A stretch of 23,166 nucleotides of DNA from a virus (lineage: Duplodnaviria; Heunggongvirae; Uroviricota; Caudoviricetes): positions 1 to 23,166 of the IMG/VR virus record IMGVR_UViG_3300027908_000001; one strand, 5' to 3'. The notes below the pieces were generated by a model. The model saw nothing but the letters and a program-made list of their open reading frames with translations. It was not told the origin of the DNA and did no database searches. Positions 2,739 to 22,515 of this stretch are shown here, in pieces; position 1 is the stretch's first letter; every line of letters starts with the position of its first letter. The translations under genes were made by a program, and so were the position numbers.

Positions 2739-2825
2739 AACATAAGTCTCCTGTGACTTGTTTGGGTGTTATGCCTCACTACTGAGGACTTTCAGTGCCA
2801 GCGTCCCAGTTCCGCCAGCACCGAC

Positions 2826-2854: not shown

Positions 2855-2862
2855 GTGGAATC

Positions 2863-3450: not shown

Positions 3451-3616
3451 AAGGTTTTACATTCGGCGGTTGAAAAAGCGGACACCAGTTGGCGCGATTC
3501 CCCCATATGATTTTTACAACCGCCATTCGACTGAATCCGGCTCGACGATAAAACTGAATCCAGAGGCGCATCAGGCCCGGCTGCCGGTAGGCGTTGATGC
3601 TCCACTGATAATTCAT
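3440..3616 (-). CDS. Small hypothetical protein, 58 aa (MNYQWSINAY...PCEY), absent from the ORF track
   Basis: Hand translation. ATG overlaps the NAMPT-like TGA (ATGA) and the ORF fills the gap exactly. Confidence 0.65.
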   Translation of the reverse strand: MNYQWSINAYRQPGLMRLWIQFYRRAGFSRMAVVKIIWGNRANWCPLFQPPNVKPCEY

Positions 3617-5867: not shown

Positions 5868-5875
5868 GAGAGATA

Positions 5876-5904
5876 CCCATACGCGAAACGCGGTAGGCTG
5901 TCAA
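5876..5904 (-). promoter_or_regulatory. Sigma70-like promoter, probably giving a leaderless prs mRNA
   Basis: TTGACA-17 nt-TATGGG; only 8 nt lie between the -10 and the ATG at 5867; no Shine-Dalgarno. Confidence 0.55.
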
Positions 5905-5911
5905 CAGGTTT

Positions 5912-6025
5912 TTACAGGGGCTCGCCGCACTCAAACGGATGGCGGCGGTAAATGCGCCCGTAGATGACACGGATGGCCGGGCAAACCAGCCAGACTATCA
6001 GGGCCATAAGGTAGGCCAAAGTCAA
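5912..6025 (-). CDS. Small single-pass membrane peptide, 37 aa (MTLAYLMALIVWLVCPAIRVIYGRIYRR...), absent from the ORF track
   Basis: TTG overlaps the upstream TGA; hydrophobic stretch followed by an Arg-rich tail. Confidence 0.5.
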   Translation of the reverse strand: MTLAYLMALIVWLVCPAIRVIYGRIYRRHPFECGEPL

Positions 6026-6450
6026 ACTGGGTAGGCTTTTGGGGGAGAAGTATCGCATGACGGTTTCTGGAACAGACCGCTCTTTTCAATCATGTGCTTG
6101 AGCATTGCCTGTAGCTCGGGGTGGAAAGGATTCATGAATCGGTCCTCGCCGACGTTGAAGCAGTAGAGGCGTCGCTCCTCGGCCCCATCTTTATAACCGC
6201 GTGTGGAATTCGGTGTTAGCACCCATTTTGTGTGATACTTCTCCGGCACGAACTTCGCGAACTCCGGAGTCATGACGATAATGATGTCCGCCCATTCATA
6301 GAGCATCTCGCGTGTCTCTTGGGTGTTGGACTCCACCCCGCAGGCCAGTACATCGTGTTGGCCGTAGTTGCTGTAGTGGAGCAGGTACTTCAGGGCCACG
6401 CTGCGTACCTGACCGCCGCGGCAAATGGTGAGGATTTTCACTTGAACCAC
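6022..6450 (-). CDS. Low-molecular-weight protein phosphatase (LMW-PTP/ArsC fold)-like protein
   Basis: N-terminal ILTI-CRGGQVRS (C-x5-R-S P-loop) and EWADIIIVM. Confidence 0.75.
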   Translation of the reverse strand: MVQVKILTICRGGQVRSVALKYLLHYSNYGQHDVLACGVESNTQETREMLYEWADIIIVMTPEFAKFVPEKYHTKWVLTPNSTRGYKDGAEERRLYCFNVGEDRFMNPFHPELQAMLKHMIEKSGLFQKPSCDTSPPKAYPV

Positions 6451-6722
6451 CTGCGGAACCAGCTTGGCTTGAGCGGCGCGCTGATTCGGACCGGCTGCGC
6501 GAAGGTCAGGTAAACCTCAAACCAATTGCTGCCGAAATCGTAGTGATACCCTATCGGCATGCAGCGGATGTCCTCGCAGGCACCGCGTTCGATGCGCGGG
6601 AATATCGGGCAGAGCTTCATCACCGTAAAAACATCCATACGCTCGTCAGTGATGACCAAATAGGCCCGCTGATAGTCGGTGAGCTTGTTTGGGAAAATCT
6701 CGGTGCATTGAAGGATTTTCAT
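6438..6722 (-). CDS. Hypothetical protein, 94 aa
   Basis: Coupled ORF in the operon. Confidence 0.7.
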   Translation of the reverse strand: MKILQCTEIFPNKLTDYQRAYLVITDERMDVFTVMKLCPIFPRIERGACEDIRCMPIGYHYDFGSNWFEVYLTFAQPVRISAPLKPSWFRRWFK

Positions 6723-7585
6723 TAGCCGCCTATTTTGTAGTACCGGCCATTGGCCACGAATCCATGATGGTCATGCGGAATTACCAGCGTCGGATGAAAC
6801 CGTTTCTCATGGATGTAGCCGAACGTGAACGCTTGTTGCCAGCCCGGTGTCGGCGCGTACTCCAGCGAAGTCAGGCAGAGGCAACCGTTGTTCAGCCAAC
6901 AGTGACCGCCGCGGCTATCAGCCCAGCTATAAGTTTGCGCTCGATGGTCGTGACCGCACAGACCGGAGGACCCGCGTTCGATGGCCATGATGCGGGCGAC
7001 GTTGGCCGGGAACGCCGCTGACTTGGCGGCGCGGTACCCGTGTTCGATGATGAACCCGGCCATGTCGTAGCGGCTACCGTAAGGAATTGTGTGGATATTG
7101 AATTCAGCCAAACCGAGCAGCGACTCAATCTCCAAGCACTTCAAAGACGATAGTTTACTGCCGTCGGCCCAAAGGAAGCGCCGGAGCCGGTCCTCATGAT
7201 TACCCTGCACGAAGAACCGACGGGCTGTCGGGTTGGCTTTCACCCGTCGAGCGAACCACGCCTTGCCAGCGCTTAGTTCGTCCTGCAGGTTGAACACCCG
7301 GGACGGATTCTGGTCGAAATGGCTGCACGAGTAGAAGTCGATGATGTCGCCGTTATAGACCTCGATGGTCGGTTTGAAGTCAGCGAAGAAGGTTTCCACG
7401 GCATCCAGCACCGGGAAATCTGCGAACGGGATATGCACGTCATTGACAATCACCACTCGGTCGCCTTCCTTGAGCCCGGCGATTTTGTGGGTGGTGTAAT
7501 CCTGCGGCTTGATGAACAGACTGGCGGCCTTCAGGAGCGATGAACTCATGGAATCTTCCACGACTGCGGAGGCATTCACTTTCAA
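6722..7585 (-). CDS. Calcineurin-like metallophosphoesterase
   Basis: DVH, GDIID, GNHE, HG and GHDHR metal-binding motifs in canonical order. Confidence 0.92.
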   Translation of the reverse strand: MKVNASAVVEDSMSSSLLKAASLFIKPQDYTTHKIAGLKEGDRVVIVNDVHIPFADFPVLDAVETFFADFKPTIEVYNGDIIDFYSCSHFDQNPSRVFNLQDELSAGKAWFARRVKANPTARRFFVQGNHEDRLRRFLWADGSKLSSLKCLEIESLLGLAEFNIHTIPYGSRYDMAGFIIEHGYRAAKSAAFPANVARIMAIERGSSGLCGHDHRAQTYSWADSRGGHCWLNNGCLCLTSLEYAPTPGWQQAFTFGYIHEKRFHPTLVIPHDHHGFVANGRYYKIGG

Positions 7586-7878
7586 ATTCGGCTCTCTTTC
7601 GCGGCGGCGAGTTGTTCCTTGACCTCTCGAATGGTGTCTGGATGTCCGAAGAATGTTTTCCGCTGACCGCGGTATGCGCCCTTGAATCGGTAATCGGATA
7701 GCACGGTCGAAATTGGTTTTGTGGTGATAGACCCTTCGGATGAACCAATGGCCTTGGCAAGTTCCTCCACATCCACCAGTTCGCCTTTTTTTATTTTCTT
7801 GGCAAACTCCAGCGCCTTGCGCGCGGCAGGAGGTAGGGCTGTGACGGTCTCGACGTATGCGATGGCTGACATTCTCAT
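7582..7878 (-). CDS. Putative HTH-like DNA-binding protein
   Basis: LVDVEELAKAIGSSEGSI resembles an HTH; basic protein; coupled to the phosphoesterase. Confidence 0.55.
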   Translation of the reverse strand: MRMSAIAYVETVTALPPAARKALEFAKKIKKGELVDVEELAKAIGSSEGSITTKPISTVLSDYRFKGAYRGQRKTFFGHPDTIREVKEQLAAAKESRI

Positions 7879-8201
7879 GCGTGCTGTTCTCCGGGCGGTT
7901 CTTCCTTACCGTGGTCCGTATTCCATTCCGAGTTGATTCGGCTGGCGTCGGCGGCGCAGACCATCAGCTTGAAGGTCACGCCGCATTTCCAGTCATCCGG
8001 TTTCCCCACGAACTCCACGTTCAAGATGCGGTACCCGTGCGGGGCCAGTTCATTGAGGAAGTGGATGGACTCTTTCCAGAGCACGAACAGTTTGGTGACC
8101 AGTTCGTCTTCGGTCAGATGGGATAGCTTCTTGCCGAGTTGGGATGGCAGGGAAGTGTAAGCCGACGCGGCGACATCGAGCGATATGGCGGCAGCGCTCA
8201 T
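7875..8201 (-). CDS. Hypothetical protein, 108 aa
   Basis: Coupled ORF. Confidence 0.7.
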   Translation of the reverse strand: MSAAAISLDVAASAYTSLPSQLGKKLSHLTEDELVTKLFVLWKESIHFLNELAPHGYRILNVEFVGKPDDWKCGVTFKLMVCAADASRINSEWNTDHGKEEPPGEQHA

Positions 8202-8260
8202 GTGGAACGATTTACGACAACTGCATTGTGGCGGGTCCCCACCCCCATAAAATCCATCAT
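8198..8260 (-). CDS. Possible leaderless 20-aa peptide (MMDFMGVGTRHNAVVVNRST)
   Basis: ATG lies 9 nt after the -10 at 8270; its TGA overlaps the ATG of 7875-8201. Confidence 0.3.
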   Translation of the reverse strand: MMDFMGVGTRHNAVVVNRST

Positions 8261-8269
8261 GCCGCGCCC

Positions 8270-8298
8270 GCTATACGCCCTGAGCCGCTGAAATGCAA
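8270..8298 (-). promoter_or_regulatory. Sigma70-like promoter
   Basis: TTGCAT-17 nt-TATAGC with GCG before the -10. Confidence 0.65.
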
Positions 8299-8351
8299 GT
8301 GGAAGTTTCGGTGTGTCTGGGACTTACGCGGTCGGTAGGTCTTGCTTACGC

Positions 8352-9626
8352 TTATGCGCGACCGCGGATGTCGTTATCAATGTGACCCTGCGCCTGATTT
8401 TCATCAAGCGGCTTCTCGTTGCTGACGGCCTCGAACGCCGCCACTGGGCGAGCTACTTGCCCGGTGTCCTCGGGAACTACCCGGGTTGCCCCGGGATACT
8501 TGTGTGTGGGATGGACCCACTGAATATCGTTTGGCACGACACGGCCTGCGGGCATCGCGTTGAGCGTTCCGAGCGACAGCATGTTGACGGCTCCGATAAC
8601 GTCGCGCGGAGCTATCGTGCCGCACTTACTGCATGTGAACACTCGACCATTCTGCCTGCATCGTTCTCCACAAACGGGACACGTTTGCGAACTGAACGCT
8701 TCGCTGCGGACCAAGGTGCCCGCAGTTTTGTACTGAAGTTGTTTGGTGATGCGACCGCAGCAGGCCGAACTGACTTGCTGGGCGTTGACACGGCCCATCT
8801 TAACAGCGGCTCCGTTGAATGGCTGGCCGATATGACAGATTGCGCCGGGAAAGGTATCAGCAACGAGACGCGTGGCTTTGTGGGTGATATCCTTGATGCG
8901 TGAGTTGGATTTATCCAATAACCGGTGTTTGCGGCGTTCAATACGGAGCCACCGGCGCGAGCGCTTCTTGGTCTTTGATTGCCGCGAACGTAGCGATGAC
9001 AATCGCTTATTACGCCATTGAATCGTGGCCTTGGCTTCATGGCCGGAAATCATTAGAACTTTCTTGCCATCTGTTGCGGCGACAAGCGTGTTCACTCCAA
9101 GGTCGATGCCGATGTCCATCTTAGGCGCTGGTTGGGCGATGTCGCATTGGCAAACTAGAATCACCTTGCCGTATAAGAGCGTAACTTCCACAAGTCTACC
9201 GGGTAACACAATACCACGCGGCATATTGATGCGCAACTTTCCTGCCGAACCACAGGGCAGCAACAAACGACCATTGCAAATACGCGCTGACTGATTAGTG
9301 AACGGAACATCCCGATAGTGTAAAATACGGTTTGGGTAGTTAGCGTGTAGGCCTTTCTTACGCGCAGCCGATGTTCCCTTAATCGAATCGCAAAAATCCT
9401 TTACGATTTGCTGAACAGATTGTGCCCTTAGATGTGGATATTTCTTTTTCGACCAATGCATAAGACGGTTTTCGGTGGGCCACTTCCACATCGCACGCCT
9501 CAGGCGTGCATGGCGCTTGACCATGTCATTCCATAATCTCGCCGCCTCAGTTCGAGCCGATGTGAACGTTGCCCATTGCGTGGCGGTGTGAGGCAACCAG
9601 CCAATTTCAACTGAGCGGTATTGCAT
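8352..9626 (-). CDS. tnpB: TnpB RNA-guided nuclease, rearranged RuvC-II type
   Basis: RuvC-I GIDLG; Zn ribbon CPVC...CSKC; RuvC-III RDVIGAVN; the usual RuvC-II Glu position reads IGQP and a Glu appears in SEAFSSQTC. Confidence 0.92.
   Translation of the reverse strand: MQYRSVEIGWLPHTATQWATFTSARTEAARLWNDMVKRHARLRRAMWKWPTENRLMHWSKKKYPHLRAQSVQQIVKDFCDSIKGTSAARKKGLHANYPNRILHYRDVPFTNQSARICNGRLLLPCGSAGKLRINMPRGIVLPGRLVEVTLLYGKVILVCQCDIAQPAPKMDIGIDLGVNTLVAATDGKKVLMISGHEAKATIQWRNKRLSSLRSRQSKTKKRSRRWLRIERRKHRLLDKSNSRIKDITHKATRLVADTFPGAICHIGQPFNGAAVKMGRVNAQQVSSACCGRITKQLQYKTAGTLVRSEAFSSQTCPVCGERCRQNGRVFTCSKCGTIAPRDVIGAVNMLSLGTLNAMPAGRVVPNDIQWVHPTHKYPGATRVVPEDTGQVARPVAAFEAVSNEKPLDENQAQGHIDNDIRGRA
8382..8510 (-). 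ncRNA. Putative TnpB omegaRNA scaffold overlapping the tnpB 3' end
   Basis: Hairpin-rich CCCGGG-GCAA-CCCGGG...GTAGTTCCCGAGGACACCGGGCAAGTAGC...GAGAAGCC running to TCAC; the position is typical of omegaRNAs. The 5' end is a guess. Confidence 0.55.
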
Positions 9627-9750
9627 CTTTCATCGCTTTATTGGACATCTTGCCTCCTAGTATCCGAGTCTCTCACAGTATTTGCAATATATTTCTCCTT
9701 GAAGTCGTGGCTCGCACCTTGCTCGTAAACACTTCTATCGGGCGTGCTCA
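8382..9750 (-). mobile_element. IS200/IS605-family tnpB-only element (IS1341-like); left end approximate
   Basis: Right end GAAG + hairpin CGCTTGAT-GAAA-ATCAGGCG (8393-8412) + TCAC (8382-8385). Left-end-like GAGCCACGACTTCAAG near 9700-9715. No tnpA. Confidence 0.7.
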
Positions 9751-11941
9751 ATTCCTTGAGCGTCGGGTCACTCGGGAAGCGTCCGAACTCGTCCGGCTGG
9801 GCGTCGAGCATCGGGTCGGCAGCGGTGCCGTCGAGATGTTTCAAGGCGAACGGATTCGGTATCAGCTTGTCGTACCGGACCGGTATGGCCTTGCGGAGCG
9901 TAATGTCCCGCTTGGATAGCGTGCGCTCCGGTCCGTGACCGTTGCCATCGCGGTCGCACTCGCGGCCTGTCAACCAGTGACCGGATTCATGGACGACTTT
10001 CAGGACGACCGTGCGCGTCTTGCGGAACGCTTTCTTGAACGTGACCTCCTCGACCGGGTAAGCCTTGGCCAGTACACCGTGTTCCAGAAGTGTCTTGGCA
10101 CCGGCAATGGCGTTCGTATCGGACTTGAACGGGTACCGGCGTCCTCGGTCGTTGAAGTAGAATCCGCCAGCGCCATCCGGTTTCACGTCTACGTGAAAGC
10201 TGGTCGAACCGTAATGGATGCTGACGCGCTTGCCGTCGGGCTGTGGGATGACGGAGAACTTGTCCTTGGGCGCATCGGCCACGGCGGTGCCGCCGGATGT
10301 CCAGCGGCCATGGTCGTCGCGCGGTTCGTCGGCGGATTTAGATAAGCCTTCCGAGTAATAACCGATTAGGTCCGGATGCGCCGCATGCCAATCAATCATT
10401 TCCTGACGATTACACGGGTAGAGCCTTCCGTGTTTTACATAGTCATCCCAGATGCGCGTCAGCATCCTCGTTCTCATGAAATTCAGTTGACCATTGCGCA
10501 CGTAAACCATGTAGAGCCCGTCATTTCCATGGTCATCCAACTTCGACATAAAAACTGTCTTGGACTGACTCGGGCCGTAGTGGTCGTCACGGTAGAACTG
10601 GATGTCATCCGTATCCCCCGACGCCTTGGCCACGTACTCGGCAATCGTATTGGCGTTCTTCACAAGCTCGCCATTGTCCGGATTGATTTGACGGGCGCGG
10701 TCGTCATAGATGACCCCTATGTCGGGCGTCTTTTCGTTGGTAATCGGAATGGTGCCGGGCAATCCTTGGGCGATGAGCCAGTCACGGATGTAGGGGATGT
10801 TCGCCGGGTCTGTGGCGCGAGCCGTGAAGATAACTACCGGTGTACCCGCGGCGATGCAGGAGCGAAGTTCATCCATGGCCGTGCGCTTCGAGTCGTCGGT
10901 GAACGGTTTTTGCAGCGGCGGCCCCAGCTTGTCTGGCGCGAACTCTCCCGGCAATATTTGCGCGAGTGTGCCGTCAAAATCAAAAGCGACCGTGTGCTTG
11001 GCGTCCGACTTACTGACCGGCTCCCCGGTCAATATCGGCTTCCATTCCGTCGCCCAATCTGGCAGGAGTGCGGATTTCTGGACAGCGTAAGGCCGTTCGG
11101 CTGGCGGTATGTTCTTGTTGCTGCCGTCCGTGTTGAAGTTCTGCGGACCGAAGTTTACCCAAGAATTCTGGCCGCGCGTCTCCGTGGTCAGCGCCCGCTG
11201 CGCCAGAGGCGAGAACATCTGGCTGTGCTTGAGCCATGCGTTCTCTTCGCCACGCGGACCGAACTGGAATCCCTCGGATGCATGTCCGAAGGTATCGTGG
11301 ATTGCCCTAAATTTATCGTTAATGGATAGCCCGTGTTCATCCTTTTCTGCAAGAAACTTGTTCGGCTCGCTGCCGCCTTGGAAGAAAAACAAGTGCTTGT
11401 TATCCAGAAGGTCCTTGCACATCTCCTTCGAGTTGGCATACGGCTGGCCGGGTTTCGTCCATGACTCGTACTGGATGCCCATCTTCTTCTCGGCGAAATC
11501 CCATTGCTGCTGAATCTCCTTGCCGAGTTGGCGATAGGCCGCTTCGGTTTCCGGACTGTGGTCGTCCACCGGCATGGCTTCGTAGGCCGCGGCGATACGC
11601 TTGGCGCGGTCGGGGTCCAGCGGGGCGTAGACGTTGATGGCGGGCGGCGCGATGCCTACTTCTTGGCAGTAACTGGCTGCGCCTTTTCGGATGGCGTCGT
11701 TTCCGCCTTCGTTGACGTGGGCGACACTGGCGGCGATTTGTAATGGAGCCCGCCCGGCTTCCAGCCCTGCGGCGGTCGACGGAACTCCGGTTCCTTCATG
11801 TCCTCGTTCTTCATGACTCTCTCCTTGTACTACAGTTCCACTGGTTTGTCCAGCGGTAAATTCACCGCCACCGGTCGTGCCTGCCGGGACGCGCGGGTGT
11901 TCGGATTCTACGAACTTGCTGATAACAGCGGCATCATTCAT
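9638..11941 (-). CDS. Multidomain (polyvalent-like) protein, 767 aa: HPR motif, HDxxGH domain, HAD phosphatase, further small domains
   Basis: FRAIHDTFGH...FGPRGEENAW...TETRGQNSW domain; HAD motifs DFDGT, FTAR, K and YDDR; linkers VAKAS, LSKS and LAKA. The C-terminal ~30 aa are probably IS-derived. Confidence 0.85.
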   Translation of the reverse strand: MNDAAVISKFVESEHPRVPAGTTGGGEFTAGQTSGTVVQGESHEERGHEGTGVPSTAAGLEAGRAPLQIAASVAHVNEGGNDAIRKGAASYCQEVGIAPPAINVYAPLDPDRAKRIAAAYEAMPVDDHSPETEAAYRQLGKEIQQQWDFAEKKMGIQYESWTKPGQPYANSKEMCKDLLDNKHLFFFQGGSEPNKFLAEKDEHGLSINDKFRAIHDTFGHASEGFQFGPRGEENAWLKHSQMFSPLAQRALTTETRGQNSWVNFGPQNFNTDGSNKNIPPAERPYAVQKSALLPDWATEWKPILTGEPVSKSDAKHTVAFDFDGTLAQILPGEFAPDKLGPPLQKPFTDDSKRTAMDELRSCIAAGTPVVIFTARATDPANIPYIRDWLIAQGLPGTIPITNEKTPDIGVIYDDRARQINPDNGELVKNANTIAEYVAKASGDTDDIQFYRDDHYGPSQSKTVFMSKLDDHGNDGLYMVYVRNGQLNFMRTRMLTRIWDDYVKHGRLYPCNRQEMIDWHAAHPDLIGYYSEGLSKSADEPRDDHGRWTSGGTAVADAPKDKFSVIPQPDGKRVSIHYGSTSFHVDVKPDGAGGFYFNDRGRRYPFKSDTNAIAGAKTLLEHGVLAKAYPVEEVTFKKAFRKTRTVVLKVVHESGHWLTGRECDRDGNGHGPERTLSKRDITLRKAIPVRYDKLIPNPFALKHLDGTAADPMLDAQPDEFGRFPSDPTLKELSTPDRSVYEQGASHDFKEKYIANTVRDSDTRRQDVQ

Positions 11942-11944
11942 TGA

Positions 11945-12262
11945 TTACGAACTCTTTTGGTGCAGGATAAACGTCCAGACAATATTGCCGAGTAACACCG
12001 CGGCGATGCCCATCAGCCAGTCCCGATTCTGCTTGGATATGTCAGCCCTTGTCTCCAGAGCGACCACCCGGTTGCATAATGCGGCGTCGGCGTCTTTGTT
12101 GGAGCCGATGGCTATCCAGAGCCTAGCCCGCTCGTTCTCGCCGTCGGTTATGCCCTGTTGGAGGCGCGTCTCGGTTTCCTTTAGGTCGGTCAGGTTCGCC
12201 GGTCGCTCGGCGCGGGCCAGCGGTGTAAAACATAGTATGATGGCCAACAGAAATCCCCGCAT
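11945..12262 (-). CDS. Membrane-anchored coiled-coil protein, 105 aa (signal peptide plus C-terminal TM)
   Basis: AAGGAGG RBS before the ATG at 12262 (not 12523); MRGFLLAIILCFTPLARA signal; WLMGIAAVLLGNIVWTFIL TM segment. Confidence 0.75.
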   Translation of the reverse strand: MRGFLLAIILCFTPLARAERPANLTDLKETETRLQQGITDGENERARLWIAIGSNKDADAALCNRVVALETRADISKQNRDWLMGIAAVLLGNIVWTFILHQKSS

Positions 12263-12275
12263 AAAAACTACCTCC

Positions 12276-12641
12276 TTAGCGCCGGTCCGCCACTTTGACG
12301 TATGGCACTCGCGCCGCGTTCTTGCTCTGGAACGCCGCGCGCGCCCGCGCCTTGGCCATGCGGTCTGACCCGAGGATGTCCCGGCGCATCGCGTTCTTGT
12401 CGACCTGACCGCCGCGCTCGGACCGGGCCTTTTCGATGGCTGTCTCGTTGGCCTTGCGTTTCTCCAGCTTGGCCATGGTTTCGGACGAAAGACTGAATCG
12501 TGAGCCGTCCGCATCGTCGTCACGCTCCACGGCCTTGGCGACTGTGTTGGCTAAACGTGGGTTGGTGAGCGCCGATACGACCGGTCGGCCTTCGATGAAC
12601 GATTTGATGATTTCTTGTTCGCGGGTCATTGCTTTATCCAT
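12276..12641 (-). CDS. Helical basic protein with repeated hydrophobic-x-K-A/S sites
   Basis: Start trimmed to 12641 (or 12629) to avoid overlap with 12655-13203. Contains IIKS, VAKA, IEKA and MAKA. Confidence 0.7.
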   Translation of the reverse strand: MDKAMTREQEIIKSFIEGRPVVSALTNPRLANTVAKAVERDDDADGSRFSLSSETMAKLEKRKANETAIEKARSERGGQVDKNAMRRDILGSDRMAKARARAAFQSKNAARVPYVKVADRR

Positions 12642-12654
12642 AAAGTGGCGTGCA

Positions 12655-13203
12655 TTAGTTGTCTCGGAGTTCTTCCGATAACCGGTCTGATTCCATCTGA
12701 TGATGTGTTGCTTGCTTGTCATGGTAGGACCGGTCACTGCGGTCAATAGCGAGCTTGGCCGCGCGCTCGTGAGCATCTTGCGCGTTGGCGTGAAGCTGAA
12801 CGTCATCGCTGGCGTCAGCTTTCGCGGAAGCATCGATGGCCTCGTCAGCGACTCTCTTGTAACGCCTCGCATAGGCCCCGGCGGTCGCTCGGTCGGTGAT
12901 TTCTTCCCGGCCACCGCGTTTCTCGGAACCGTGGCCACCGGCGTCCTTGGCCTTGCTCAAATTCTGTACTTCGCTAATCGTCTTTCCCAACCGCACCGGC
13001 TTCCGCATCTTACGGTTCAAATTCTGCAACCTCTTTTTACGACCGCCCTGCTCCGGAACCATGAGTCCACCGCCTGCCGCCAAGTCGGAAGTCGTTATGG
13101 CCCCGCCAGTCGATGTTGCCGGTGAGCCCGCGCCGCCGTCACCGTCCTTGCGGAGCCGGGCCTTCTTGAATATTTCCAACGTCTTGAGATTCGCGATGCC
13201 CAT
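12655..13203 (-). CDS. Motif-tagged hypothetical protein (KAKDAGGHGSEKRGG followed by a His/Asp-rich helical domain)
   Basis: ORF; motif shared with 15073-16182. Confidence 0.8.
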   Translation of the reverse strand: MGIANLKTLEIFKKARLRKDGDGGAGSPATSTGGAITTSDLAAGGGLMVPEQGGRKKRLQNLNRKMRKPVRLGKTISEVQNLSKAKDAGGHGSEKRGGREEITDRATAGAYARRYKRVADEAIDASAKADASDDVQLHANAQDAHERAAKLAIDRSDRSYHDKQATHHQMESDRLSEELRDN

Positions 13204-13205
13204 GG

Positions 13206-13715
13206 TTAAACCTTTGCCGCTTTCTTTTTGGCGGAAGTTTTGGGTGTTTTTTCCGCCGAAACTTCGTCGTCATTCTCCTGATTATCTTCCGAATCTTCGC
13301 CGTCCTCGGAAGATTCATCGTCAGATTGCTCAGGCATGGTAAGGCCGCCGATAATCTGTACCCCGCCACCCGCCACTTCCGGCGTTACGTCACGGTGGCT
13401 GGCGTACTTGTCCACCTCGGCTTTCGGGTCAAAATCTTCCGCGTCCGGCAGCATGTGACCGGCGTTCGTGTTGGCGTTGGCCGCAGGCATACCGGCCTTG
13501 GGTTTCTGTCCGGGCTGGCCGCCGGGTTTACCACTCGGCCGATTGGATGGCCGACCGAACTCGGACGGACTACCGCCGCGGCTACCGGGTTTCTTGGCCG
13601 GTGTGCCGCCGCGCGCGTTGTTAATCGGCAACTGCGGCTTGACGTGCGGGAACCCGTTCTGCGCGGGCAACTGTTCCTGCTGGTCCTCAGTCAGATTCTG
13701 GTTAATGTTTGCCAT
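13206..13715 (-). CDS. Low-complexity disordered protein (Pro/Gly/Lys-rich, acidic tract, basic tail)
   Basis: Coupled ORF; composition. Confidence 0.75.
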   Translation of the reverse strand: MANINQNLTEDQQEQLPAQNGFPHVKPQLPINNARGGTPAKKPGSRGGSPSEFGRPSNRPSGKPGGQPGQKPKAGMPAANANTNAGHMLPDAEDFDPKAEVDKYASHRDVTPEVAGGGVQIIGGLTMPEQSDDESSEDGEDSEDNQENDDEVSAEKTPKTSAKKKAAKV

Positions 13716-15070
13716 TATCGACCTCCCATTGGCGATGGTGAACCGGCACCGACTTTGCCCATCAGCGGCATGCTCGCGCCGATGCCTTTGCTCGATGCCT
13801 GTTTCTCGGCGGCTTGCTGGTTGTATTGCCCCTGTTCTTCCGCCGGATATTCTTCCTTGGATTCGTAGTGGACACCGCGCGCCTTTTCGTAGGAATAAAT
13901 GATGGTGCGGAACGCCTGCGCCGCTTCGTCGTCATCCTCGGCTCCGATGAAATTGCCCGTACACTTGGCGTGCTCACTCATCGCGCCCGGCAAGAACTGC
14001 GTCGCCCGCTGGACGTTCTCCATGTTATCTTCACCGCCCTGCTCGAATATCACGACATCCGTGCCGTGCTCCGTCTTGACGAATACCCGACTTGGCAGGT
14101 CAGCCTTGTCCAGTACCGCCTGCAACTGTTTCAAATTCTGCGGCCATTGCGCGTCGCTGGTGTCATGCGGCACCGAGATATGGTAGAGCGTATCCTCGCC
14201 CTTCGGGTCCAGCATGATGTTCAGGACCACGTTCTTCTGCGCGGCCAATCCCTTGAGCGCCCCGGCATAGTCGAGCGTATCGGCATCCGGCACCTTGGCA
14301 ATCGCTTCGTACAGCGCGGAATCCGTGTCGCCGTCATCCCCGCTGTCATCGCCAATGGCCGGTAGAGTTGCGGACTTGAGCCCGGCGAACTGGTCGATTT
14401 CACCAGCTACCCGGTTCAGCCAGTCGGCTTGCGGTGTACCGAGGTCGCCTATCGCGCCGCTTACGCCCGACGGCCCGTCATCGTACTGGCTGGCGTGCTC
14501 CTGTGCTGCGACATGCTTGCCGTGCCATTCCAGAAACCCTTTGGCATCATCCGGTTCCACCGTCTTGGTTGAACCATCTTTGCCGTGGACATTCAGACCT
14601 TCTTTGCCGACCGAGACACCGGCGATGTCGTCGATGTTGTGCTCGTCGCCCGAGGCGGTCTTGAAGGTGGTACTTGGTGCGAACCGGCCCCGTGCCCGAC
14701 GCCGTTCCTCTTTCTTGGCTTTCTTGGCCGCCTTGGCAATGGCAGTGCGCTCCCGAATCAGGAACATCTTACTGAGCGTCGTCTTGAAAATGGGGCTGTT
14801 TGGCACAGCCACGCCGTCGACGTTGGCGAGTCGGCTCCGTACCTGATTGTCCGTTCGCTCCGGTGCAAATCGTTCCATGAGGTCCTTGTTGGTTCGGGAC
14901 GCTTCGAGAGTCTGGTCAGTCATCCGCGCCAAATCCTTCGCCGGGTCCATGGGAATCTTGCCGCGCGCCTTCTCTTCAATGAGCGCGTCATTGAGTTGGG
15001 CGTTTTCCACGTCGTCGCCGTGCTGCTTGGCGACTCGTGTGACCGGTCGGAGTGTCGTGAGCGTGAACAT
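13715..15070 (-). CDS. Multidomain hypothetical protein, 451 aa (AIAKA...RGRF motif)
   Basis: The ATG at 15070 directly follows the upstream stop (15073-15075); a start at 15100 is also possible. Confidence 0.8.
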   Translation of the reverse strand: MFTLTTLRPVTRVAKQHGDDVENAQLNDALIEEKARGKIPMDPAKDLARMTDQTLEASRTNKDLMERFAPERTDNQVRSRLANVDGVAVPNSPIFKTTLSKMFLIRERTAIAKAAKKAKKEERRRARGRFAPSTTFKTASGDEHNIDDIAGVSVGKEGLNVHGKDGSTKTVEPDDAKGFLEWHGKHVAAQEHASQYDDGPSGVSGAIGDLGTPQADWLNRVAGEIDQFAGLKSATLPAIGDDSGDDGDTDSALYEAIAKVPDADTLDYAGALKGLAAQKNVVLNIMLDPKGEDTLYHISVPHDTSDAQWPQNLKQLQAVLDKADLPSRVFVKTEHGTDVVIFEQGGEDNMENVQRATQFLPGAMSEHAKCTGNFIGAEDDDEAAQAFRTIIYSYEKARGVHYESKEEYPAEEQGQYNQQAAEKQASSKGIGASMPLMGKVGAGSPSPMGGR

Positions 15071-15072
15071 GG

Positions 15073-16182
15073 TTACTTCTTTGCTAATTGCTTGTCCCAA
15101 TGGTCGGCGAACAGTTCCGGCAAATGATTCTCCACCGACTTCATCGCCGTGCGGAAATCGACATGCGACTGTTCCTGCACCATCTTGGCCGCGTTGTAGG
15201 CGTTCAGTCCCGCCTTGTCAGTTGGCGATTTTGGAATCTGGTCAGCGAACCCGGCACGGATACCCTTGGCTGCGGCATCGGGATGCATTACGCGGTCCGG
15301 ATATTTGGCGGCCAGCCGCTCGGCGTCATCCACGGTCTGCAGGTGCGGGTTGTTGTGTTGGCTGTACTGCGCCATGTACTGCGCGCCTGCCAACGTGCGG
15401 AAAGGGCCGGTCGCCGCGCCGTACTGTTTGCCGTGAGATTCCTCGGTCGGCGTCGAGTCGTGCTGGAATACTTCATCCCTGCCGCCGGACTTACTGAAGT
15501 GGCCGACGTAATACTTCATCGGCCCCTTCTTCTCGAAACTGGTGGTGAGGCCGTTCTGCACGACATTCAAGCCATGCTGGCCCGCATAATCTTTGGCGGC
15601 TTCGGTTGCGCCTGAGTTGTGGAGAGCAAGGGCATGACCGGCATCGAACGCTTCGCCGCGTTTATTCGAGCCGTGACCTTTGGCGTCTTTCGCCTTGGCC
15701 AGCCTCCTTGCTTCCATCATGGCGGGACTGTTGACTCCCACGCCCCGAATGGCGGAGTTGCCCCAGCGTTTTTGGCTGTCAAACCCATCAGCCGGTATTC
15801 CAGCGATGACCTCCTGCGGATTGGCCTTAGCACCGGGTGGTTTCACCATGTGAATCTTGCCCTCTCCCGACCACGCCGTCTTGTACCCGTCCGCCTTCAA
15901 CTTATTGTAGGTTGCCATGCCATCAGTACGGCTCATGTCAACCGTTTGTTCGGCCGAGCCGCCCCGCTTCTCAGAACCGTGGCCTTTCGCATCCTTAGCC
16001 TTCTCAACCCGGCCAAGCTCTCCGACGCTCTTGCGAATCGGGCGCGACACCTCTGCCGCCGCGGCCTTCTTGCGGATAATCCCGCCGAACAACGACGCCG
16101 ACTTGAAGTTCGGCACGGTCTTGGTCACCGGTACGCTCGGCAATCCCTGAATCCTGCTCAATGCTTTGCTGCTGATACCCAT
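15073..16182 (-). CDS. Motif-tagged modular protein with two KAKDAKGHGSxKRG repeats
   Basis: GGAG RBS; internal repeat at 15958-16002 and 15655-15696. Confidence 0.85.
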   Translation of the reverse strand: MGISSKALSRIQGLPSVPVTKTVPNFKSASLFGGIIRKKAAAAEVSRPIRKSVGELGRVEKAKDAKGHGSEKRGGSAEQTVDMSRTDGMATYNKLKADGYKTAWSGEGKIHMVKPPGAKANPQEVIAGIPADGFDSQKRWGNSAIRGVGVNSPAMMEARRLAKAKDAKGHGSNKRGEAFDAGHALALHNSGATEAAKDYAGQHGLNVVQNGLTTSFEKKGPMKYYVGHFSKSGGRDEVFQHDSTPTEESHGKQYGAATGPFRTLAGAQYMAQYSQHNNPHLQTVDDAERLAAKYPDRVMHPDAAAKGIRAGFADQIPKSPTDKAGLNAYNAAKMVQEQSHVDFRTAMKSVENHLPELFADHWDKQLAKK

Positions 16183-16200
16183 AAATGTTCTCCAATCCTT

Positions 16201-16229
16201 ACTTTACGGCCCTACGTCGCCGCGTTCAA
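16201..16229 (-). promoter_or_regulatory. Sigma70-like promoter overlapping the upstream stop codon
   Basis: TTGAAC-17 nt-TAAAGT. TAA is the stop codon of 16204-16383. Confidence 0.7.
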
Positions 16230-16383
16230 CCTTCAATCGCTTGTATTCCGCCTCGCTCAATTCCATGCGGTCCGCGCTATCATCCGCCAAGTAAATCTCC
16301 AAGTAAAACTTCCCGCCCTCCGTCACCAGCAACGTCGGCTGATGCGTCTTAAGTTCCACTCCATCGATGCGGGTGAACTTCAT
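16204..16383 (-). CDS. Small acidic protein, 59 aa (MKFTRIDGVELK...DVGP), absent from the ORF track
   Basis: Hand translation; fills the gap exactly and reads as a natural protein. Confidence 0.75.
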   Translation of the reverse strand: MKFTRIDGVELKTHQPTLLVTEGGKFYLEIYLADDSADRMELSEAEYKRLKVERGDVGP

Positions 16384-16386
16384 GGC

Positions 16387-18633
16387 TCATGCCCCTACGA
16401 ACTCCGCAATCGTTTCGGAATCCTTGCCGCAACCGCACGTCGAACAGCCGCACTTCGATTTGCTCACGTCCGCCTGTGGGATACCCCATGCCGTCGCGAA
16501 ATTATTGGCCGCTTTTAAGAGTGGGATTATATCCATATCTACCTTGCGCACTTTCATCGTGAGTGGTTTATCTAACCCTTCGCGATACGACGCACCGACC
16601 GCGGCTGCCCATCTGTGGTGCCCGTCCAAGATATAATTTCCCGGACCTGCTGTAAAAATTGGCTCGCCTAGAATCGCAGGATTTTTACCAGACTCAATCG
16701 CCGCAACCATGCCTGCGACCTTGCCGCCGTTTAATTCTGAATTTCCCTGAATCGCAACTATCCCATTGCGGCGTGTAATTAACGTCCCACGAGGAAGAGT
16801 GAAACAATAGACTTCACCATCATATTCTTCCTTTATTGGCTTAGGCAAGCATGCAAGCGCGGCATTACCCGTTCCTCTAGCGCCAGAAGCGCCCTTACGC
16901 AATCGCACAAACCATTCCGTTCTTTCGCCTCTTTTGGTCATGTAGGTTTCTTGTTCCTGTTTTTGTGCGAAAAACCCACAATGCATAGCGAGACGTTGAG
17001 CGTCGTCCGCAAGCTGTTCGCTTGTAATTCCAAGCCGCGATGCCCCCAATGATTCCCATTTGTCTTTCCCGCCAGTCCAGCCGTCTCCCCTCATAAGGCC
17101 GCGCAATAAAATCCATTGCTGCTCTTTTGGAAGACTAAAAACAAATTCTGGTATTCTCTTGTTGTACGCATGGGTGCCAACGTGTTCTTCCAGCCATGCC
17201 ACATATTGACCGGGTTCCTTTGGGCACCAGAACCATTGCCCATCAGCCGATACGCATTCACGTCCTTTAACGCCTAGAGATTTACAGACTCTTTTTATCT
17301 CATCAATCCATGGAGATTTAATTGACTGTGAAACCATGCCAGCGTGCCCCTCGGCAATATACCAGCCAAGCCATGCCAGCCATGCATCCATAGGAAGAGA
17401 TATTTTTGGTCTCATCTTGGCGCTGCGAATCCTACGTGCAGAATATTCTGCATTCGGGTCTTCGATAACTCTTTGAACTGTTCTACGAATCTTTCCGACC
17501 TCATCCGCCACCCTCTGATAATATCCCTGCTTGCCTCTATGTCCCGGTGCATGGAATCCTTTTTCGCCCACTGCCGATTTACCACAGCCGCATGCACATA
17601 ATCCCGTCGCAAAAGAGAACGCTGCAATCTTCGCTGCTATATCTCGAATTCTATCGTTCCTTTCCTTGTGATATTCTCCGATTCGCAAGCCAACCCTTCG
17701 GCCAGACAATGGATATTCTGGAATGACGAATTCATCTACTTTGACGCCCCCACACATTCCGCCGGGGGCAGAGACCTGCGCGTACATTCGAGAGACATAA
17801 CTAAGGCTAGATGCCTCGCAGAATTTGGGAATCATATCGGATTGTTTGCGAATAAAAAGCCTATGATTCGGCGTGACGGCCAAGTCGAAGACCTGTCCAA
17901 TGAATCTATAAATAGGCCCACTATGACGCATTAACGTCATGCCCGCTAATGGTTGTTCATAATGAATCTGCTGTGACTCAGTATTAAACGATGCTATTTT
18001 GGGCATGGTTCCGTTGGCAGTATGAACTTTTAATTCATCCAGCCCCATCCATCCGTATTCTGTCAATGTCTCCGTAAGCGCATCGTGGCACTGAGTTGCC
18101 TTCAGATAATCGGCGCGCTCCACTTCGTCCGTAACGCTAATGCCTGCGGCGTGAAGGTGCTCCACGAATGGACCAGCCAAATCCACCTCTCCATTTTTAT
18201 CCTTCAGCAATGCATCAGCCTTCGAGCCCGGCGTCGGCACGCCTTTGAGTTGCGGCATCTGGACGCGGGGAACATTTTTTGACTCGACACAAAAAAGTGA
18301 GGTGCCGGGAATGGTTACCTTGCACAAATCGTATACACCGGCTTTTTCCCCTTTGGCCTTGGCTTCATCCACAATGTCTTTGAGTTTACCAAGAAGCGTG
18401 GAAACCTGTCGAACGCTTTTTAGCTGGACATATTTGTTCTCACCCAGCGCCTTGGCCGCGACCAACACGTCGCTGGTGACTATCGGGTCGGACTTGGTGC
18501 CGGTGCCCGTCGATTCGCCGTCTGCGCCCGAAGTGAATTCTCCGCCACCGGTCTGTCCAGCCGGTACCCGTGGATGCTGCTCCTCGGTGAACGCCTTGGC
18601 GAGGTGATGGATGATTTGGACAGCAGGTCGCAT
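16387..18633 (-). CDS. ParB/Srx-like domain protein with HPR motif, interrupted by an intein (about 298 aa after splicing)
   Basis: The spliced junction LKATQ|SEL joins to YILDGHHRWAAA, a ParB N-terminal-like motif. Confidence 0.85.
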   Translation of the reverse strand: MRPAVQIIHHLAKAFTEEQHPRVPAGQTGGGEFTSGADGESTGTGTKSDPIVTSDVLVAAKALGENKYVQLKSVRQVSTLLGKLKDIVDEAKAKGEKAGVYDLCKVTIPGTSLFCVESKNVPRVQMPQLKGVPTPGSKADALLKDKNGEVDLAGPFVEHLHAAGISVTDEVERADYLKATQCHDALTETLTEYGWMGLDELKVHTANGTMPKIASFNTESQQIHYEQPLAGMTLMRHSGPIYRFIGQVFDLAVTPNHRLFIRKQSDMIPKFCEASSLSYVSRMYAQVSAPGGMCGGVKVDEFVIPEYPLSGRRVGLRIGEYHKERNDRIRDIAAKIAAFSFATGLCACGCGKSAVGEKGFHAPGHRGKQGYYQRVADEVGKIRRTVQRVIEDPNAEYSARRIRSAKMRPKISLPMDAWLAWLGWYIAEGHAGMVSQSIKSPWIDEIKRVCKSLGVKGRECVSADGQWFWCPKEPGQYVAWLEEHVGTHAYNKRIPEFVFSLPKEQQWILLRGLMRGDGWTGGKDKWESLGASRLGITSEQLADDAQRLAMHCGFFAQKQEQETYMTKRGERTEWFVRLRKGASGARGTGNAALACLPKPIKEEYDGEVYCFTLPRGTLITRRNGIVAIQGNSELNGGKVAGMVAAIESGKNPAILGEPIFTAGPGNYILDGHHRWAAAVGASYREGLDKPLTMKVRKVDMDIIPLLKAANNFATAWGIPQADVSKSKCGCSTCGCGKDSETIAEFVGA
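16741..18090 (-). mobile_element. Intein (450 aa) with LAGLIDADG homing endonuclease
   Basis: Starts CHDALTE; block B VTPNHRL; LAGLIDADG-like WLGWYIAEG and LLRGLMRGDG; block F VYCFTL; ends IQGN followed by Ser+1; AT-rich relative to the exteins. Confidence 0.93.
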
Positions 18634-18634: not shown

Positions 18635-18988
18635 TCAGTTCTCGATGATGCCGAATTCGTAGAGGCAGGAGGCCGTGTGTGCCTTACAGTGAATCGCCGC
18701 TGCGTTCCATCTCGCTACCAAGAATTCTCCCGGCAGAATCACCAATGGGTACGTCGAGCCGTCGCCACCTATACTGATGTAGTTGGTGCCGTCAAGGTTC
18801 TTGATGTAAATCCAGCCAATAGTGCCAATTGCACCCAGCGGAATCGTACCGTCCGATGTCGTAGCAAGCTCCACGCCGACCGACATGTAGGTGCCGGTCA
18901 TCGTGATGGAATCGGAGCCGGATTTCGAGAATTGCGCCCCGTTCTTGGAAGCAGTTATATTGAAGCTGACAGCGATTTCGTTGGCCAT
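18635..18988 (-). CDS. Putative virion structural protein (small, beta-rich)
   Basis: Gly/Thr/Ser/Ile-rich with few charged residues (WIYIKNLDGTNYISIG). Function is inferred from composition only. Confidence 0.5.
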   Translation of the reverse strand: MANEIAVSFNITASKNGAQFSKSGSDSITMTGTYMSVGVELATTSDGTIPLGAIGTIGWIYIKNLDGTNYISIGGDGSTYPLVILPGEFLVARWNAAAIHCKAHTASCLYEFGIIEN

Positions 18989-19004: not shown

Positions 19005-19031
19005 GTTCTACCATTCGCCGAAAGGGGTCAA
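19005..19031 (-). promoter_or_regulatory. Possible promoter for the virion/cargo block
   Basis: TTGACC-15 nt-TAGAAC with TG at the extended -10 position; the spacer is short. Confidence 0.3.
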
Positions 19032-20806: not shown

Positions 20807-21139
20807 TCAATCCTGTTCTTGAAACTTGATGAGCAAGTCGATGAATCGCTCGTGGACTTGCATCCATCTGATGAAATCCAAGGCGGTGTAGTTGTAGGCG
20901 GCCTTGGTGATGAATTTCGCTTCGGAATGGATTGTGTTGTATGGAGGGGCCAAACGAAAAGTGAATGGTTGGTCAAGCCCGAGGTCTTTTAACGTCAAAG
21001 GACTTGCCACAATCAAGTCCCACAGCAGGCCGACGCCGATGCCGGGTCTGTCAGAGATGTTAATCCGAACCGTGTATGGTATCTCCCACTCCTTGCAGGT
21101 GTCGGCCTGTTCGTGCATGATAATCTCGATGGGGTTCAT
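20807..21139 (-). CDS. Hypothetical protein, 110 aa
   Basis: Coupled ORF. Confidence 0.7.
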   Translation of the reverse strand: MNPIEIIMHEQADTCKEWEIPYTVRINISDRPGIGVGLLWDLIVASPLTLKDLGLDQPFTFRLAPPYNTIHSEAKFITKAAYNYTALDFIRWMQVHERFIDLLIKFQEQD

Positions 21140-22515
21140 ACGCCCATCCCCACGTTGGTGCCATCGTTGAATTTCAGCACCTTTGAAGCTACATTGCCCT
21201 GCTCGTCGTATTTGATGGTTTCCTCGATGCAGCGGCGTTCTGGAGTTGGTTTATGCTCTACCGGGTAACACGTCGCCACCTTCTCCAAGACGTGAACCTT
21301 GTTTCGTTCCTTGTTGGCGATGCGTTGCGCTTCTTCGTGGGCTTCCTTGAACGTATCGTGACGCGTCTGGGGCTTCATGCCCCGAGGGAAAGAGTTGAAT
21401 ACCATCCACCACTTCTGGAAGTCGTACCGTTGCTCCATGCGCGCGCCGTGCTTGTGAATCTCGTTGCGGACATTTTCCGAGTGCTGCTTGATAGATGCGC
21501 AGACTGAATCGTTGATGTTATGGACGCCGATGTCTCTCATGTCGACAAGGCTCACACGCCAGCGGCTTACTTTACCGAGCGGAACCCGGGTGCCGTCATC
21601 CAGTGAGAATTCCTTGTCCTCTGTTTCCCACCGGCAGTAGTGCATGTTTTCGTTGCAATCGCCATCTGGCACACAAATCTCGAATCTGTCCACGCGTGGC
21701 TTGCCGGTACAAAAATGGGAGTATCCGACCTGATTAGGCCAGCTTCGCAGCTTCCGTAATACGTCCTCCGGACTAGAAGGCGTTCCGGAGCCTCCAAGTA
21801 TCCGGTCGCACTCGGATACTACCTTCATCAATCGCGCCGTGGTTTCGTGGGATTCGCGCAGCCGGTCCGTCTTGCGCTGGAGGATGTCCTTGAGTTCTCG
21901 GATTTCATCGGTAAACCTACCGGCGAAGCGGCGCATGTGACTCACGAAAAGGTCACTGCCCAGATGGAACATTTTAGCTCCAGACTCTTTCCAGAGCGTC
22001 TCGGCAGCTTCCAGTAATCCGTCTGGAGTTTCTTCCGCCGCCGCATGCTCCATCGCCGCAACCACGGTGTCTCCCAATCCCTTGGGGCGAATCTTCTCTC
22101 GGTACTTGTCGGCGCGGACCCCGTGCCTGAAAAGTATCTTGGCGACCATACCTTCGCCGTCCCGAAGAATGCCGAGCATGACATGGTGCGTTCCAACGTA
22201 AGGCGTCCCCATGGACTGCGCCTCCTTGTTGGCCAATGCCAGCACTTTCTTGACGCGCGGCGTGTAGGGGAGTGATTCGCTGGTCATATTGACATCGCCG
22301 AATCCAACCTCCTTCTCAATCTCGGCCTTGAGTTGTTCCGTCTCGATGTCAATGCCTAGCCGAGGCAATGCAACCGAGTGCTGCGTTTTGCCAAGTTCAA
22401 TCAGGCCCAACACCAAATGTTCCGTGCCGACATAATTACAGCCGAGCCGTTTGGCCTCGCACCGGGCTACGGCGAGCAGTTGTTGCACGCGCGGCGTAAA
22501 TTGTCCCATGGTCAT
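21136..22515 (-). CDS. ClpC-type N-terminal (double Clp-N repeat) domain fused to non-ATPase domains
   Basis: FTPRVQQLLAVARCEAKRLGCNYVGTEHLVLGL and YTPRVKKVLALANKEAQSMGTPYVGTHHVMLGILRDGEG; no Walker A (GxxGxGKT) in the remaining ~310 aa. Confidence 0.88.
   Translation of the reverse strand: MTMGQFTPRVQQLLAVARCEAKRLGCNYVGTEHLVLGLIELGKTQHSVALPRLGIDIETEQLKAEIEKEVGFGDVNMTSESLPYTPRVKKVLALANKEAQSMGTPYVGTHHVMLGILRDGEGMVAKILFRHGVRADKYREKIRPKGLGDTVVAAMEHAAAEETPDGLLEAAETLWKESGAKMFHLGSDLFVSHMRRFAGRFTDEIRELKDILQRKTDRLRESHETTARLMKVVSECDRILGGSGTPSSPEDVLRKLRSWPNQVGYSHFCTGKPRVDRFEICVPDGDCNENMHYCRWETEDKEFSLDDGTRVPLGKVSRWRVSLVDMRDIGVHNINDSVCASIKQHSENVRNEIHKHGARMEQRYDFQKWWMVFNSFPRGMKPQTRHDTFKEAHEEAQRIANKERNKVHVLEKVATCYPVEHKPTPERRCIEETIKYDEQGNVASKVLKFNDGTNVGMGV

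Follow-up and report, generated by a model that had tools for sequence, protein, structure and literature searches.

Candidate head cargo in a large uncultured phage: polyproteins with lysine sites, junction tags and a promoter motif in common with structural genes

Our analysis suggests that a cluster of minus-strand genes in an uncultured tailed phage encodes late head cargo of the polyvalent-protein kind, which would be cut after Lys by the prohead protease into N-terminally tagged modules. We put the probability of this reading at roughly 0.6. The DNA analysed (the window) covers positions 1–23,166 of an IMG/VR record (IMGVR_UViG_3300027908_000001) that is complete, 197,395 bases long and has direct terminal repeats. 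The locus is best explained as a single operon under a promoter motif of structural genes and as part of a larger cargo set. This whole set spans 9.6–43.6 kb of the genome, beyond the limits of 9638–18633 that the original prediction had given: the system begins at a promoter-like motif at 19,007–19,031 and continues in genes at 23.0–43.6 kb, which carry the same tags and are likewise enriched for the putative cleavage site (0.91 per 100 amino acids (aa), z 9.4).

Under this reading the cargo proteins would be made along with the head proteins and would then enter the procapsid, where an XkdF-type S78 serine protease would cut after Lys in the cargo, the scaffold, itself and the capsid leader. 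The cut would free separate modules and turn their tags into new N-termini. A ParB-like domain, a HAD-like phosphatase and an HDxFGH domain would exit with the DNA, and neighbouring cargo genes would contribute ADP-ribosyltransferase and 2H phosphoesterase domains to the ejected set. Packaging, cleavage and injection of the cargo are steps that we infer from sequence.

Lysine sites in cargo and head proteins

The locus was originally proposed to be rich in hydrophobic-x-Lys-(Ala/Ser) sites, and the short strings listed for it (LAKA, VAKAS, LSKS, LSKA, VEKA, IEKA, IIKS, IRKS, AIAKA) can all be found in minus-strand open reading frames (ORFs). The 2734 aa of the locus contain the pattern [ILVMF]-x-K-[AS] 23 times; shuffling within proteins gives 7.1 ± 2.6 (z 6.1). 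Per 100 aa the locus has 0.84 sites, the remaining genes of the window have 0.36 and the rest of the genome has 0.27; because the locus exceeds both, the frequency comparison does not refute the proposal. Of 400 hydrophobic-x-X-Z patterns, the top two throughout the cargo genes (9.6–43.6 kb) are KA, with 51 occurrences where 15.5 are expected, and KS, with 30 where 9.4 are expected; in the rest of the genome neither of them is among the top 12. Three positions before the presumed cut (P3), I, L and V are enriched two- to three-fold. When 266 ORFs of the genome are ranked by motif excess, a 1082-aa cargo protein with 20 sites comes first, followed by a 443-aa acidic protein, a 221-aa cargo protein, the 121-aa and 767-aa proteins of the locus and a 169-aa protease.

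The second and the sixth of these proteins come from the head genes, which lie at genome 151,288–148,422 on the minus strand in the order protease, scaffold-like protein, capsid protein. The protease (150,779–151,288) matches Peptidase_S78_2 (XkdF-type, PF14550) at E 2.6e–9, above the curated cut-off, and has 4 sites where 0.6 are expected. The acidic protein (149,444–150,775), located between the protease and capsid genes, has a scaffold-like make-up and 14 sites versus 2.0 expected. The major capsid protein (148,422–149,417) was recognised by a phrog_1623 match; its relatives at 72–84% identity carry PF05065 and two of them are named 'HK97 family major capsid protein' by their source. It has a single site, LLIK↓AAVA (residues 11–18; the arrow marks the presumed cut here and below). 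In an alignment with 17 relatives (45–100% identity), L11, K14 and A16 never vary, conservation of A15 is at least 90%, and the segment before the site is a variable leader of 10–16 aa in all 17. The position of this Lys-Ala pair thus matches the pattern that a leader cleavage point would be expected to leave. Both the capsid protein and the scaffold, where the original prediction had proposed to look for the site, therefore carry it. Searches of the genome with PF05065 and PF04586 gave no matches, and no capsid protein or protease was found among the genes adjoining the portal; both proteins were located via PHROGs, PF14550 and relatives.

The same arrangement is seen in a relative with 82% capsid identity. 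Its gene order is again protease, scaffold, capsid; its diverged scaffold contains 12 sites versus 2.06 expected (P-value = 2e–6) and its protease contains 4 (P-value = 2e–3), while none of the other 22 genes of this 21-kb locus is enriched for the motif. We also noticed that in our genome the protease and scaffold genes share one reading frame and are separated by a single TAA and one codon (150,776–150,781). The first 30 residues of the scaffold (ITRVGLCKSPAVPEA) presumably resemble the last strand of S78 proteases. Reading the protease through the TAA into the scaffold neither extended nor improved the PF14550 match.

By analogy, hydrophobic-x-K↓A/S is predicted to be the cleavage motif of an XkdF-type head protease. 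The S78 proteases of HK97 (gp4) and T5 (pb11) are of the same clan, cut after Lys and remove capsid and scaffold leaders, as reported in PMC13517437, which cites Duda 2013 and Zivanovic 2014. The present enzyme differs from them in belonging to the XkdF subfamily, and we found no report of cargo polyproteins as substrates of gp4 or pb11. The proposal of a cut after Lys by the head protease is thus borne out as far as the motif's presence in scaffold, protease and capsid leader and the S78 clan of the enzyme are concerned; its specificity is assigned by comparison. To our knowledge, cleavage specificity has not been measured for any member of the XkdF subfamily.

Tags, modules and the promoter motif

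Three conserved short peptides had been described as following the sites, and all are present. They represent two tag types, with 19 copies in 11 proteins (11 of type A, 8 of type B) and no true copy elsewhere in the genome. The type A consensus is [FW]-D/E-E-x-x-HPR-x-x-x-G..E-F, which includes a long HPRVPxGxxGGGEF form and an EPRDDHGRW form; that of type B is KDAxGHGSx[KR]R[GA]. Identical residues of different copies use the same codon about as often as codon usage alone predicts (0.418 versus 0.400 for type A, 0.387 versus 0.375 for type B). This randomness indicates that selection acts on the peptide and argues against recent DNA duplication or gene conversion as the origin of the repeats. 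A third form, AG[NT]SEG[AV][RK]..W..R, takes the position of KDAKGHGS after hydrophobic-x-K in three homologues of the 369-aa locus protein. Our literature searches found no description of the tag peptides.

Elsewhere, type B occurs as the very beginning of genes. A back-translated scan of IMG/VR for this tag returned five contigs, and in four of them, all from other phages, it is the exact start (MKDAKGHGS or MAKDAKGHGS) of about 20 head-to-tail genes of 82–206 aa; in one of these contigs the array is followed directly by the large terminase and portal genes. When 1.84 billion cluster representatives were searched with a profile of the 36-aa junction, no more than 36 proteins reached E ≤ 0.001; several of them have 2–4 junctions and five start M-A-KDAKGHGS. 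A short N-terminal peptide common to unrelated small proteins is therefore present, both in the type B gene arrays and in five database clusters.

The residue two before KDA appears to follow a rule of its own. It is constant within each polyprotein, being K (or R) in most, N in four and E in one, and in the stand-alone genes this position is taken by Met1. All 35 within-protein pairs agree on it; over 5000 shuffles the number of agreeing pairs averaged 23 and never exceeded 31. For type A the corresponding comparison gives a trend only (10 of 16 pairs agree, and 5.7% of shuffles reach 10). Asn immediately precedes 10 of the 11 tags of a 94-kb phage; these tags are of four kinds (type A, type B, AFCPTGxGGGxDxSC and GGPGSGP) and sit in a portal extension, a MuF polyvalent protein and a protease/scaffold-like fusion. 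At 776–16127 of this IMG/VR contig AFCPTGxGGGxDxSC and GGPGSGP have 4 copies each, 3 of the latter after Asn, and the portal N-terminus reads RLTAN↓EERK. These observations suggest that the 94-kb phage may have an Asn-specific processing step. The simplest reading is that the mature module would always begin one residue before KDA, its N-terminus arising through loss of the initiator Met in some cases and, in others, through a head protease with a P1 preference that depends on the phage.

As the portal and protease/scaffold carriers of the 94-kb phage already supply entry into the head, the tag is more likely to be needed after cleavage, for retention or exit, than for entry alone. We tentatively consider a broader possibility, on balance doubtful, that the tags are members of a general N-terminal cargo-tag system of tailed phages in which a free tagged end is required for a conserved step. 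Such an end would be made by Met removal or by a Lys-, Asn- or Glu-specific head protease, the same peptide opening the mature module either way, and in the conserved step the module might be held on a capsid component or threaded out by way of the tail.

What lies between the junctions is variable. Homologues of the 369-aa protein keep a 60-aa leader and junctions of about 30 aa (..GKSLSxFGLMQGLAK↓AKDAKGHGSEKRGG), and the modules between them are unrelated from one homologue to another, in agreement with the mix-and-match arrangement first proposed. The 767-aa protein holds two or more unrelated effector-type domains in one polypeptide. Its AlphaFold model is confident only at aa 80–300, the HDxFGH domain, and a Foldseek search of the PDB with this model gave nothing at E ≤ 0.001. 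The domain is without a named relative, and it recurs in more than 580 phage proteins of 420–1340 aa with varying partners (MuF, ART-PolyVal, ParB, portal-like, lytic transglycosylase, GNAT); its homologues carry PF18760, PF04233 and PF02195. The DFDGT motif of the HAD-like module begins 10 residues past the VSK↓S site. The C-terminal extein of the 748-aa protein matches ParB/sulfiredoxin-like viral models (Atlas structure match, TM 0.64–0.68), and a DGHHR motif can be read from the protein's sequence; an intein divides this ParB-like domain between KATQ and SELNGG. A dip in GC content to 0.48–0.53 at 16–18 kb coincides with the 450-aa intein and is explained by it. A Pfam search with the six main proteins gave nothing except a weak LAGLIDADG match. 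By analogy with the polyvalent-protein literature, the modules may have an anti-host function.

The locus is linked to the head genes by its promoter as well. Scanning the genome for a 25-base motif, TTGACCC-N5-GGCGAATGGTAGA, with up to 3 mismatches allowed, gave 8 copies, every one of them on the minus strand, and none of the reversed control. Three copies belong to cargo: the one that heads the locus operon and two more in front of cargo genes at 27.5 and 43.6 kb. Of the remaining five, one lies before the portal gene, one before the protease-scaffold-capsid operon and three before genes at 133–144 kb, the region where the genome's other large genes of the minus strand are found. From the end of a copy to a start codon there are at most about 40 bases, and the copy at the protease gene overlaps the start codon; often the motif ends 0–27 bases ahead of the start codon and no Shine-Dalgarno sequence is present. 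Such an arrangement suggests that late transcripts are leaderless or have a very short leader. At about 655–681 (–) of the window there is a weaker variant. A similar motif precedes the head genes of a relative; it was not found in the cargo locus of a second relative, and a generic scan for sigma-70 promoters and terminators stayed at chance level. Given that cargo and virion genes share the motif, they are probably co-expressed, as would fit packaged proteins. The proposed association with the head is thus upheld by the motif common to the cargo, portal and protease-scaffold-capsid genes, and by neighbouring genes with MuF and ART-PolyVal domains.

Competing readings

Several points weigh against processed head cargo. 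The sites had been placed at apparent domain boundaries, which does not hold for every one of them: VQK↓S of the 767-aa protein (aa 287–290) lies inside a conserved, confidently folded domain and VCK↓S of the 748-aa protein inside the intein, so that the enrichment mixes sites and non-sites. Ala/Lys-rich helices in scaffolds and linkers could, through helical periodicity, inflate the counts past the composition-based expectation. Internal duplication of whole junctions could be partly behind the constancy of the residue before KDA, although junction flanks past P3 differ between copies. The 105-aa, 117-aa and low-complexity 169-aa proteins of the locus have neither sites nor tags, which puts their place in the system in doubt, and about 105 kb separate the cargo genes from the protease operon. 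Lastly, the Lys specificity of XkdF-type proteases is an analogy with HK97 and T5, and the support as a whole comes from sequence computation and not from the protein level.

The best of the alternatives, in our view an unlikely one, is that the junction peptides are uncleaved address or docking linkers: the polyproteins would stay whole, their motifs would bind a head component or a host target, and the K-A/S excess would be a by-product of Ala/Lys-rich helical linkers. There is a precedent in the N4 virion RNA polymerase, a polyvalent protein that is packaged uncleaved (PMC5512222); moreover, the model places the tags in regions predicted to be disordered, and type A tags of other phages are frequently without A/S after the K. 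Linkers of this kind leave unexplained why KA and KS, with a hydrophobic P3, are the top two of 400 patterns, why K-A-A at the capsid leader boundary is invariant, why the tag is the literal N-terminus of stand-alone genes and why K, N or E precedes it in a protein-specific way.

It is less probable still that the junctions are cut by an enzyme other than the prohead protease, be it a host protease after injection, autoproteolysis or a polyvalent-protein metallopeptidase. Processing by an embedded zincin-like MPTase was proposed by Iyer et al. for polyvalent proteins (PMC5512222; the string 'HPR' does not occur in that paper), and tags downstream of the cut would suit recognition inside the host cell. 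No MPTase-PolyVal domain was found in our genome, however, the family PF18818 giving no match in its 197 kb at E ≤ 1. The motif is common to scaffold, protease and capsid leader, which are prohead-protease substrates in other phages, and a single host enzyme does not explain a pre-tag residue that varies by phage.

Least probable of all is that the junctions are mainly recombination joints for cassette swapping with no role in processing, a reading that likens them to the VENN-type pre-toxin motifs known from polymorphic toxins. In homologues the modules flanked by conserved junctions are indeed unrelated, and conserved motifs do mark swap points in polymorphic toxin systems. The random synonymous positions of the 19 tags, however, show that the tags have been neither homogenised at the DNA level nor recently exchanged within this genome, and the sites of the scaffold and the capsid protein are left unexplained.

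Processed head cargo therefore remains the reading we prefer, and the original prediction taken as a whole is partly supported.

Gene order, surroundings and known systems

Every gene of the locus is on the minus strand, and from 18,988 down to 9,638 the products are of 117, 748, 59, 369, about 451, 169, 182, 121, 105 and 767 aa (Table 1). For the protein of about 451 aa, a start at the ATG at 15070 is more likely than at the TTG at 15100. The low-complexity 169-aa protein might be an internal DNA-associated or charge-balancing head protein, and the 105-aa protein is predicted to be membrane-like.

Table 1. Features of the cargo locus, in window coordinates
Feature	Position	Strand	Basis
Promoter-like motif TTGACCC-N5-GGCGAATGGTAGA heading the operon	19007–19031	–	genome motif scan
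First operon gene, 117 aa, beta-rich, no family match or tag	18635–18988	–	
748-aa protein: 13-aa leader, LAK↓A, type A tag, linker, ParB/sulfiredoxin-like domain split by intein	16387–18633	–	
Leader, HLAK↓A and type A tag AFTEEQHPRVPAGQTGGGEFT, aa 10–34 of 748-aa protein	18532–18606	–	
Intein, 450 aa (aa 182–631), Cys first, GN↓S last, LAGLIDADG-like region	16741–18090	–	
59-aa ORF between ParB-like gene and 369-aa gene	16204–16383	–	
369-aa protein: conserved 60-aa leader, two type B junctions, two unrelated modules	15073–16182	–	
Junction B1 of 369-aa protein, aa 49–75: IRK↓S, 10-aa spacer, VEK↓A, then KDAKGHGSEKRGG	15958–16038	–	
Junction B2 of 369-aa protein, aa 159–176: LAK↓A, then KDAKGHGSNKRG	15655–15708	–	
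~451-aa protein: AIAK↓A, then basic stretch ending RGRF; no family match	13715–15070	–	
169-aa low-complexity protein: basic Pro/Gly-rich N-half, strongly acidic C-half, no sites	13206–13715	–	
182-aa protein: one type B junction, then helical module	12655–13203	–	
Type B junction of 182-aa protein, aa 81–98: LSK↓A, then KDAGGHGSEKRGG	12910–12963	–	
121-aa protein with 5 sites versus 0.5 expected	12276–12641	–	
105-aa protein, hydrophobic N- and C-terminal segments, no sites	11945–12262	–	
767-aa polyprotein, 7 sites: leader and type A tag, HDxFGH domain, HAD-like phosphatase module, small modules, second type A-like tag	9638–11941	–	
Leader, VISK↓F and type A tag of 767-aa protein, aa 6–29; then ~50-aa region of low model confidence	11855–11926	–	
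Virus-specific HDxFGH domain, aa 80–300 of 767-aa protein, model confidence (pLDDT) above 90	11042–11704	–	phrog_3170
HAD-like module, aa 312–439 of 767-aa protein, between VSK↓S and VAK↓A	10625–11008	–	phrog_1238, phrog_415
LSK↓S, then type A-like tag ADEPRDDHGRWT, aa 533–548 of 767-aa protein	10298–10345	–	

The adjacent cargo proteins of 1126 and 1600 aa contain ART-PolyVal, MuF, intein and 2H phosphoesterase domains, with MuF confined to the 1600-aa protein (31.5–36.3 kb), and count as polyvalent proteins as Iyer et al. 2017 (PMC5512222) use the term. A 459-aa protein encoded between the two cargo blocks (21136–22515, –) has two Clp_N repeats and a C-terminal half of unknown nature. In relatives whose tag starts with W, F or Y, cleavage would bare an N-terminus of the type degraded by the Clp system; a link between the two observations is speculative. 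On the other side, a gene for TnpB/IS605 OrfB (Cas12f-like; 8352–9626, –) lies 12 bases downstream of the last cargo gene, and a gene of this kind is also found within the cargo locus of one relative (11964–13028 of its contig). Further along the window come a metallophosphoesterase gene (6722–7585) and adjoining genes for nicotinamide phosphoribosyltransferase and ribose-phosphate pyrophosphokinase (3613–5867, –), an NAD-salvage pair that might act against host defences which deplete NAD. The locus has no megablast match among 50,697 phage records, and the portal's relatives, found in Streptomyces phages, are only about 29% identical.

Both components of the proposed system have known counterparts. 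In T4 the targeting peptide comes before an L/I-x-E cut, and an S77 protease removes it. The tag of the present cargo follows a presumed hydrophobic-x-K cut and would remain on the module; in addition, many modules are fused in polyproteins, and the two systems are not similar in sequence. The protease we identified is of the S78_2 family (PF14550) with a predicted P1 Lys, the S77 family (PF03420) not having been searched for. The comparison with T4 made at the outset thus holds for a short peptide common to unrelated N-termini and fails for its position and fate, as it would become the new N-terminus and not be removed. T4 internal proteins and the N-terminal capsid signal of P1 DarB do share with our cargo a short N-terminal peptide on unrelated small proteins, and they are prohead-loaded, processed by the head protease and encoded in loci that vary among relatives (PMC9024508, PMC9026906). 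Phages similar to phiKZ, such as SPN3US, also have many head-internal proteins that are cut at a short consensus by the prohead protease and then ejected (PMC10052503, PMC7411985, PMC5694885), and the SPN3US-type enzyme cuts scaffold and capsid proteins too. Unlike the enzyme described here, the protease of phiKZ-like phages is T4-like, and for these phages we found no report of a post-cleavage tag or of polyvalent-type enzyme domains. Their consensus is A/S/G-x-E.

Polyvalent proteins, as defined by Iyer et al. 2017, are large phage proteins in which unrelated enzyme domains are strung together; these proteins have links to head genes and are believed to be delivered along with the DNA (PMC5512222). 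The likeness extends to the ART-PolyVal, MuF and 2H hallmarks of the neighbouring genes and to the fusion of homologues of the aa 80–300 domain to such domains; in the proteins of 9.6–18.6 kb themselves we found none of the hallmark Pfam domains MuF, ART-PolyVal, MPTase and DdrB-ParB. What sets our locus apart from polyvalent proteins is the dense Lys-Ala/Ser motif in common with the scaffold and the two tags that would define module N-termini.

Encapsulin cargo-loading peptides are short and direct diverse cargo into a shell of the HK97 fold; they are usually C-terminal and unlinked to proteolysis. With no sequence similarity to the present tags, they offer an analogy only. Pre-toxin junction motifs of polymorphic toxins were reportedly described by Zhang and colleagues in 2012. 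MuF polymorphic toxins resemble the locus in having a conserved carrier or junction followed by variable C-terminal effectors whose cassettes swap between relatives (Jamet et al. 2017, PMC5576092, where the junction motif is not mentioned), and differ from it in that no MuF match was found in the proteins of 9.6–18.6 kb and no immunity gene was identified.

The locus would therefore belong to a known kind, uniting head-internal proteins processed by a prohead protease, as in T4, SPN3US and other phiKZ-like phages (PMC9026906, PMC10052503), with polyvalent proteins (PMC5512222). New with respect to the literature we found are a Lys-Ala/Ser site common to the cargo and scaffold of a phage with an XkdF-type protease, tags placed after the cut and not before it, and a phage-specific residue before a shared tag.

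Proteins that are carried in the capsid and injected act before any phage gene is expressed, and they are hard to recognise from sequence. The grammar of this locus has three parts, namely a protease site particular to the phage, a conserved tag at the N-terminus and the promoter motif of structural genes, and it ties effector-like modules to the head-assembly machinery without proteomics. Should a general cargo-tag system exist, both the virion cargo and the protease specificity of each phage would become readable from its genome, and proteins of choice could be brought into phage heads by means of the tags. If the grammar itself is true, it would provide tags for loading foreign proteins into capsids, candidate virion cargo could be listed in uncultured phages, and it would suggest why polyvalent proteins can join domains with different targets.

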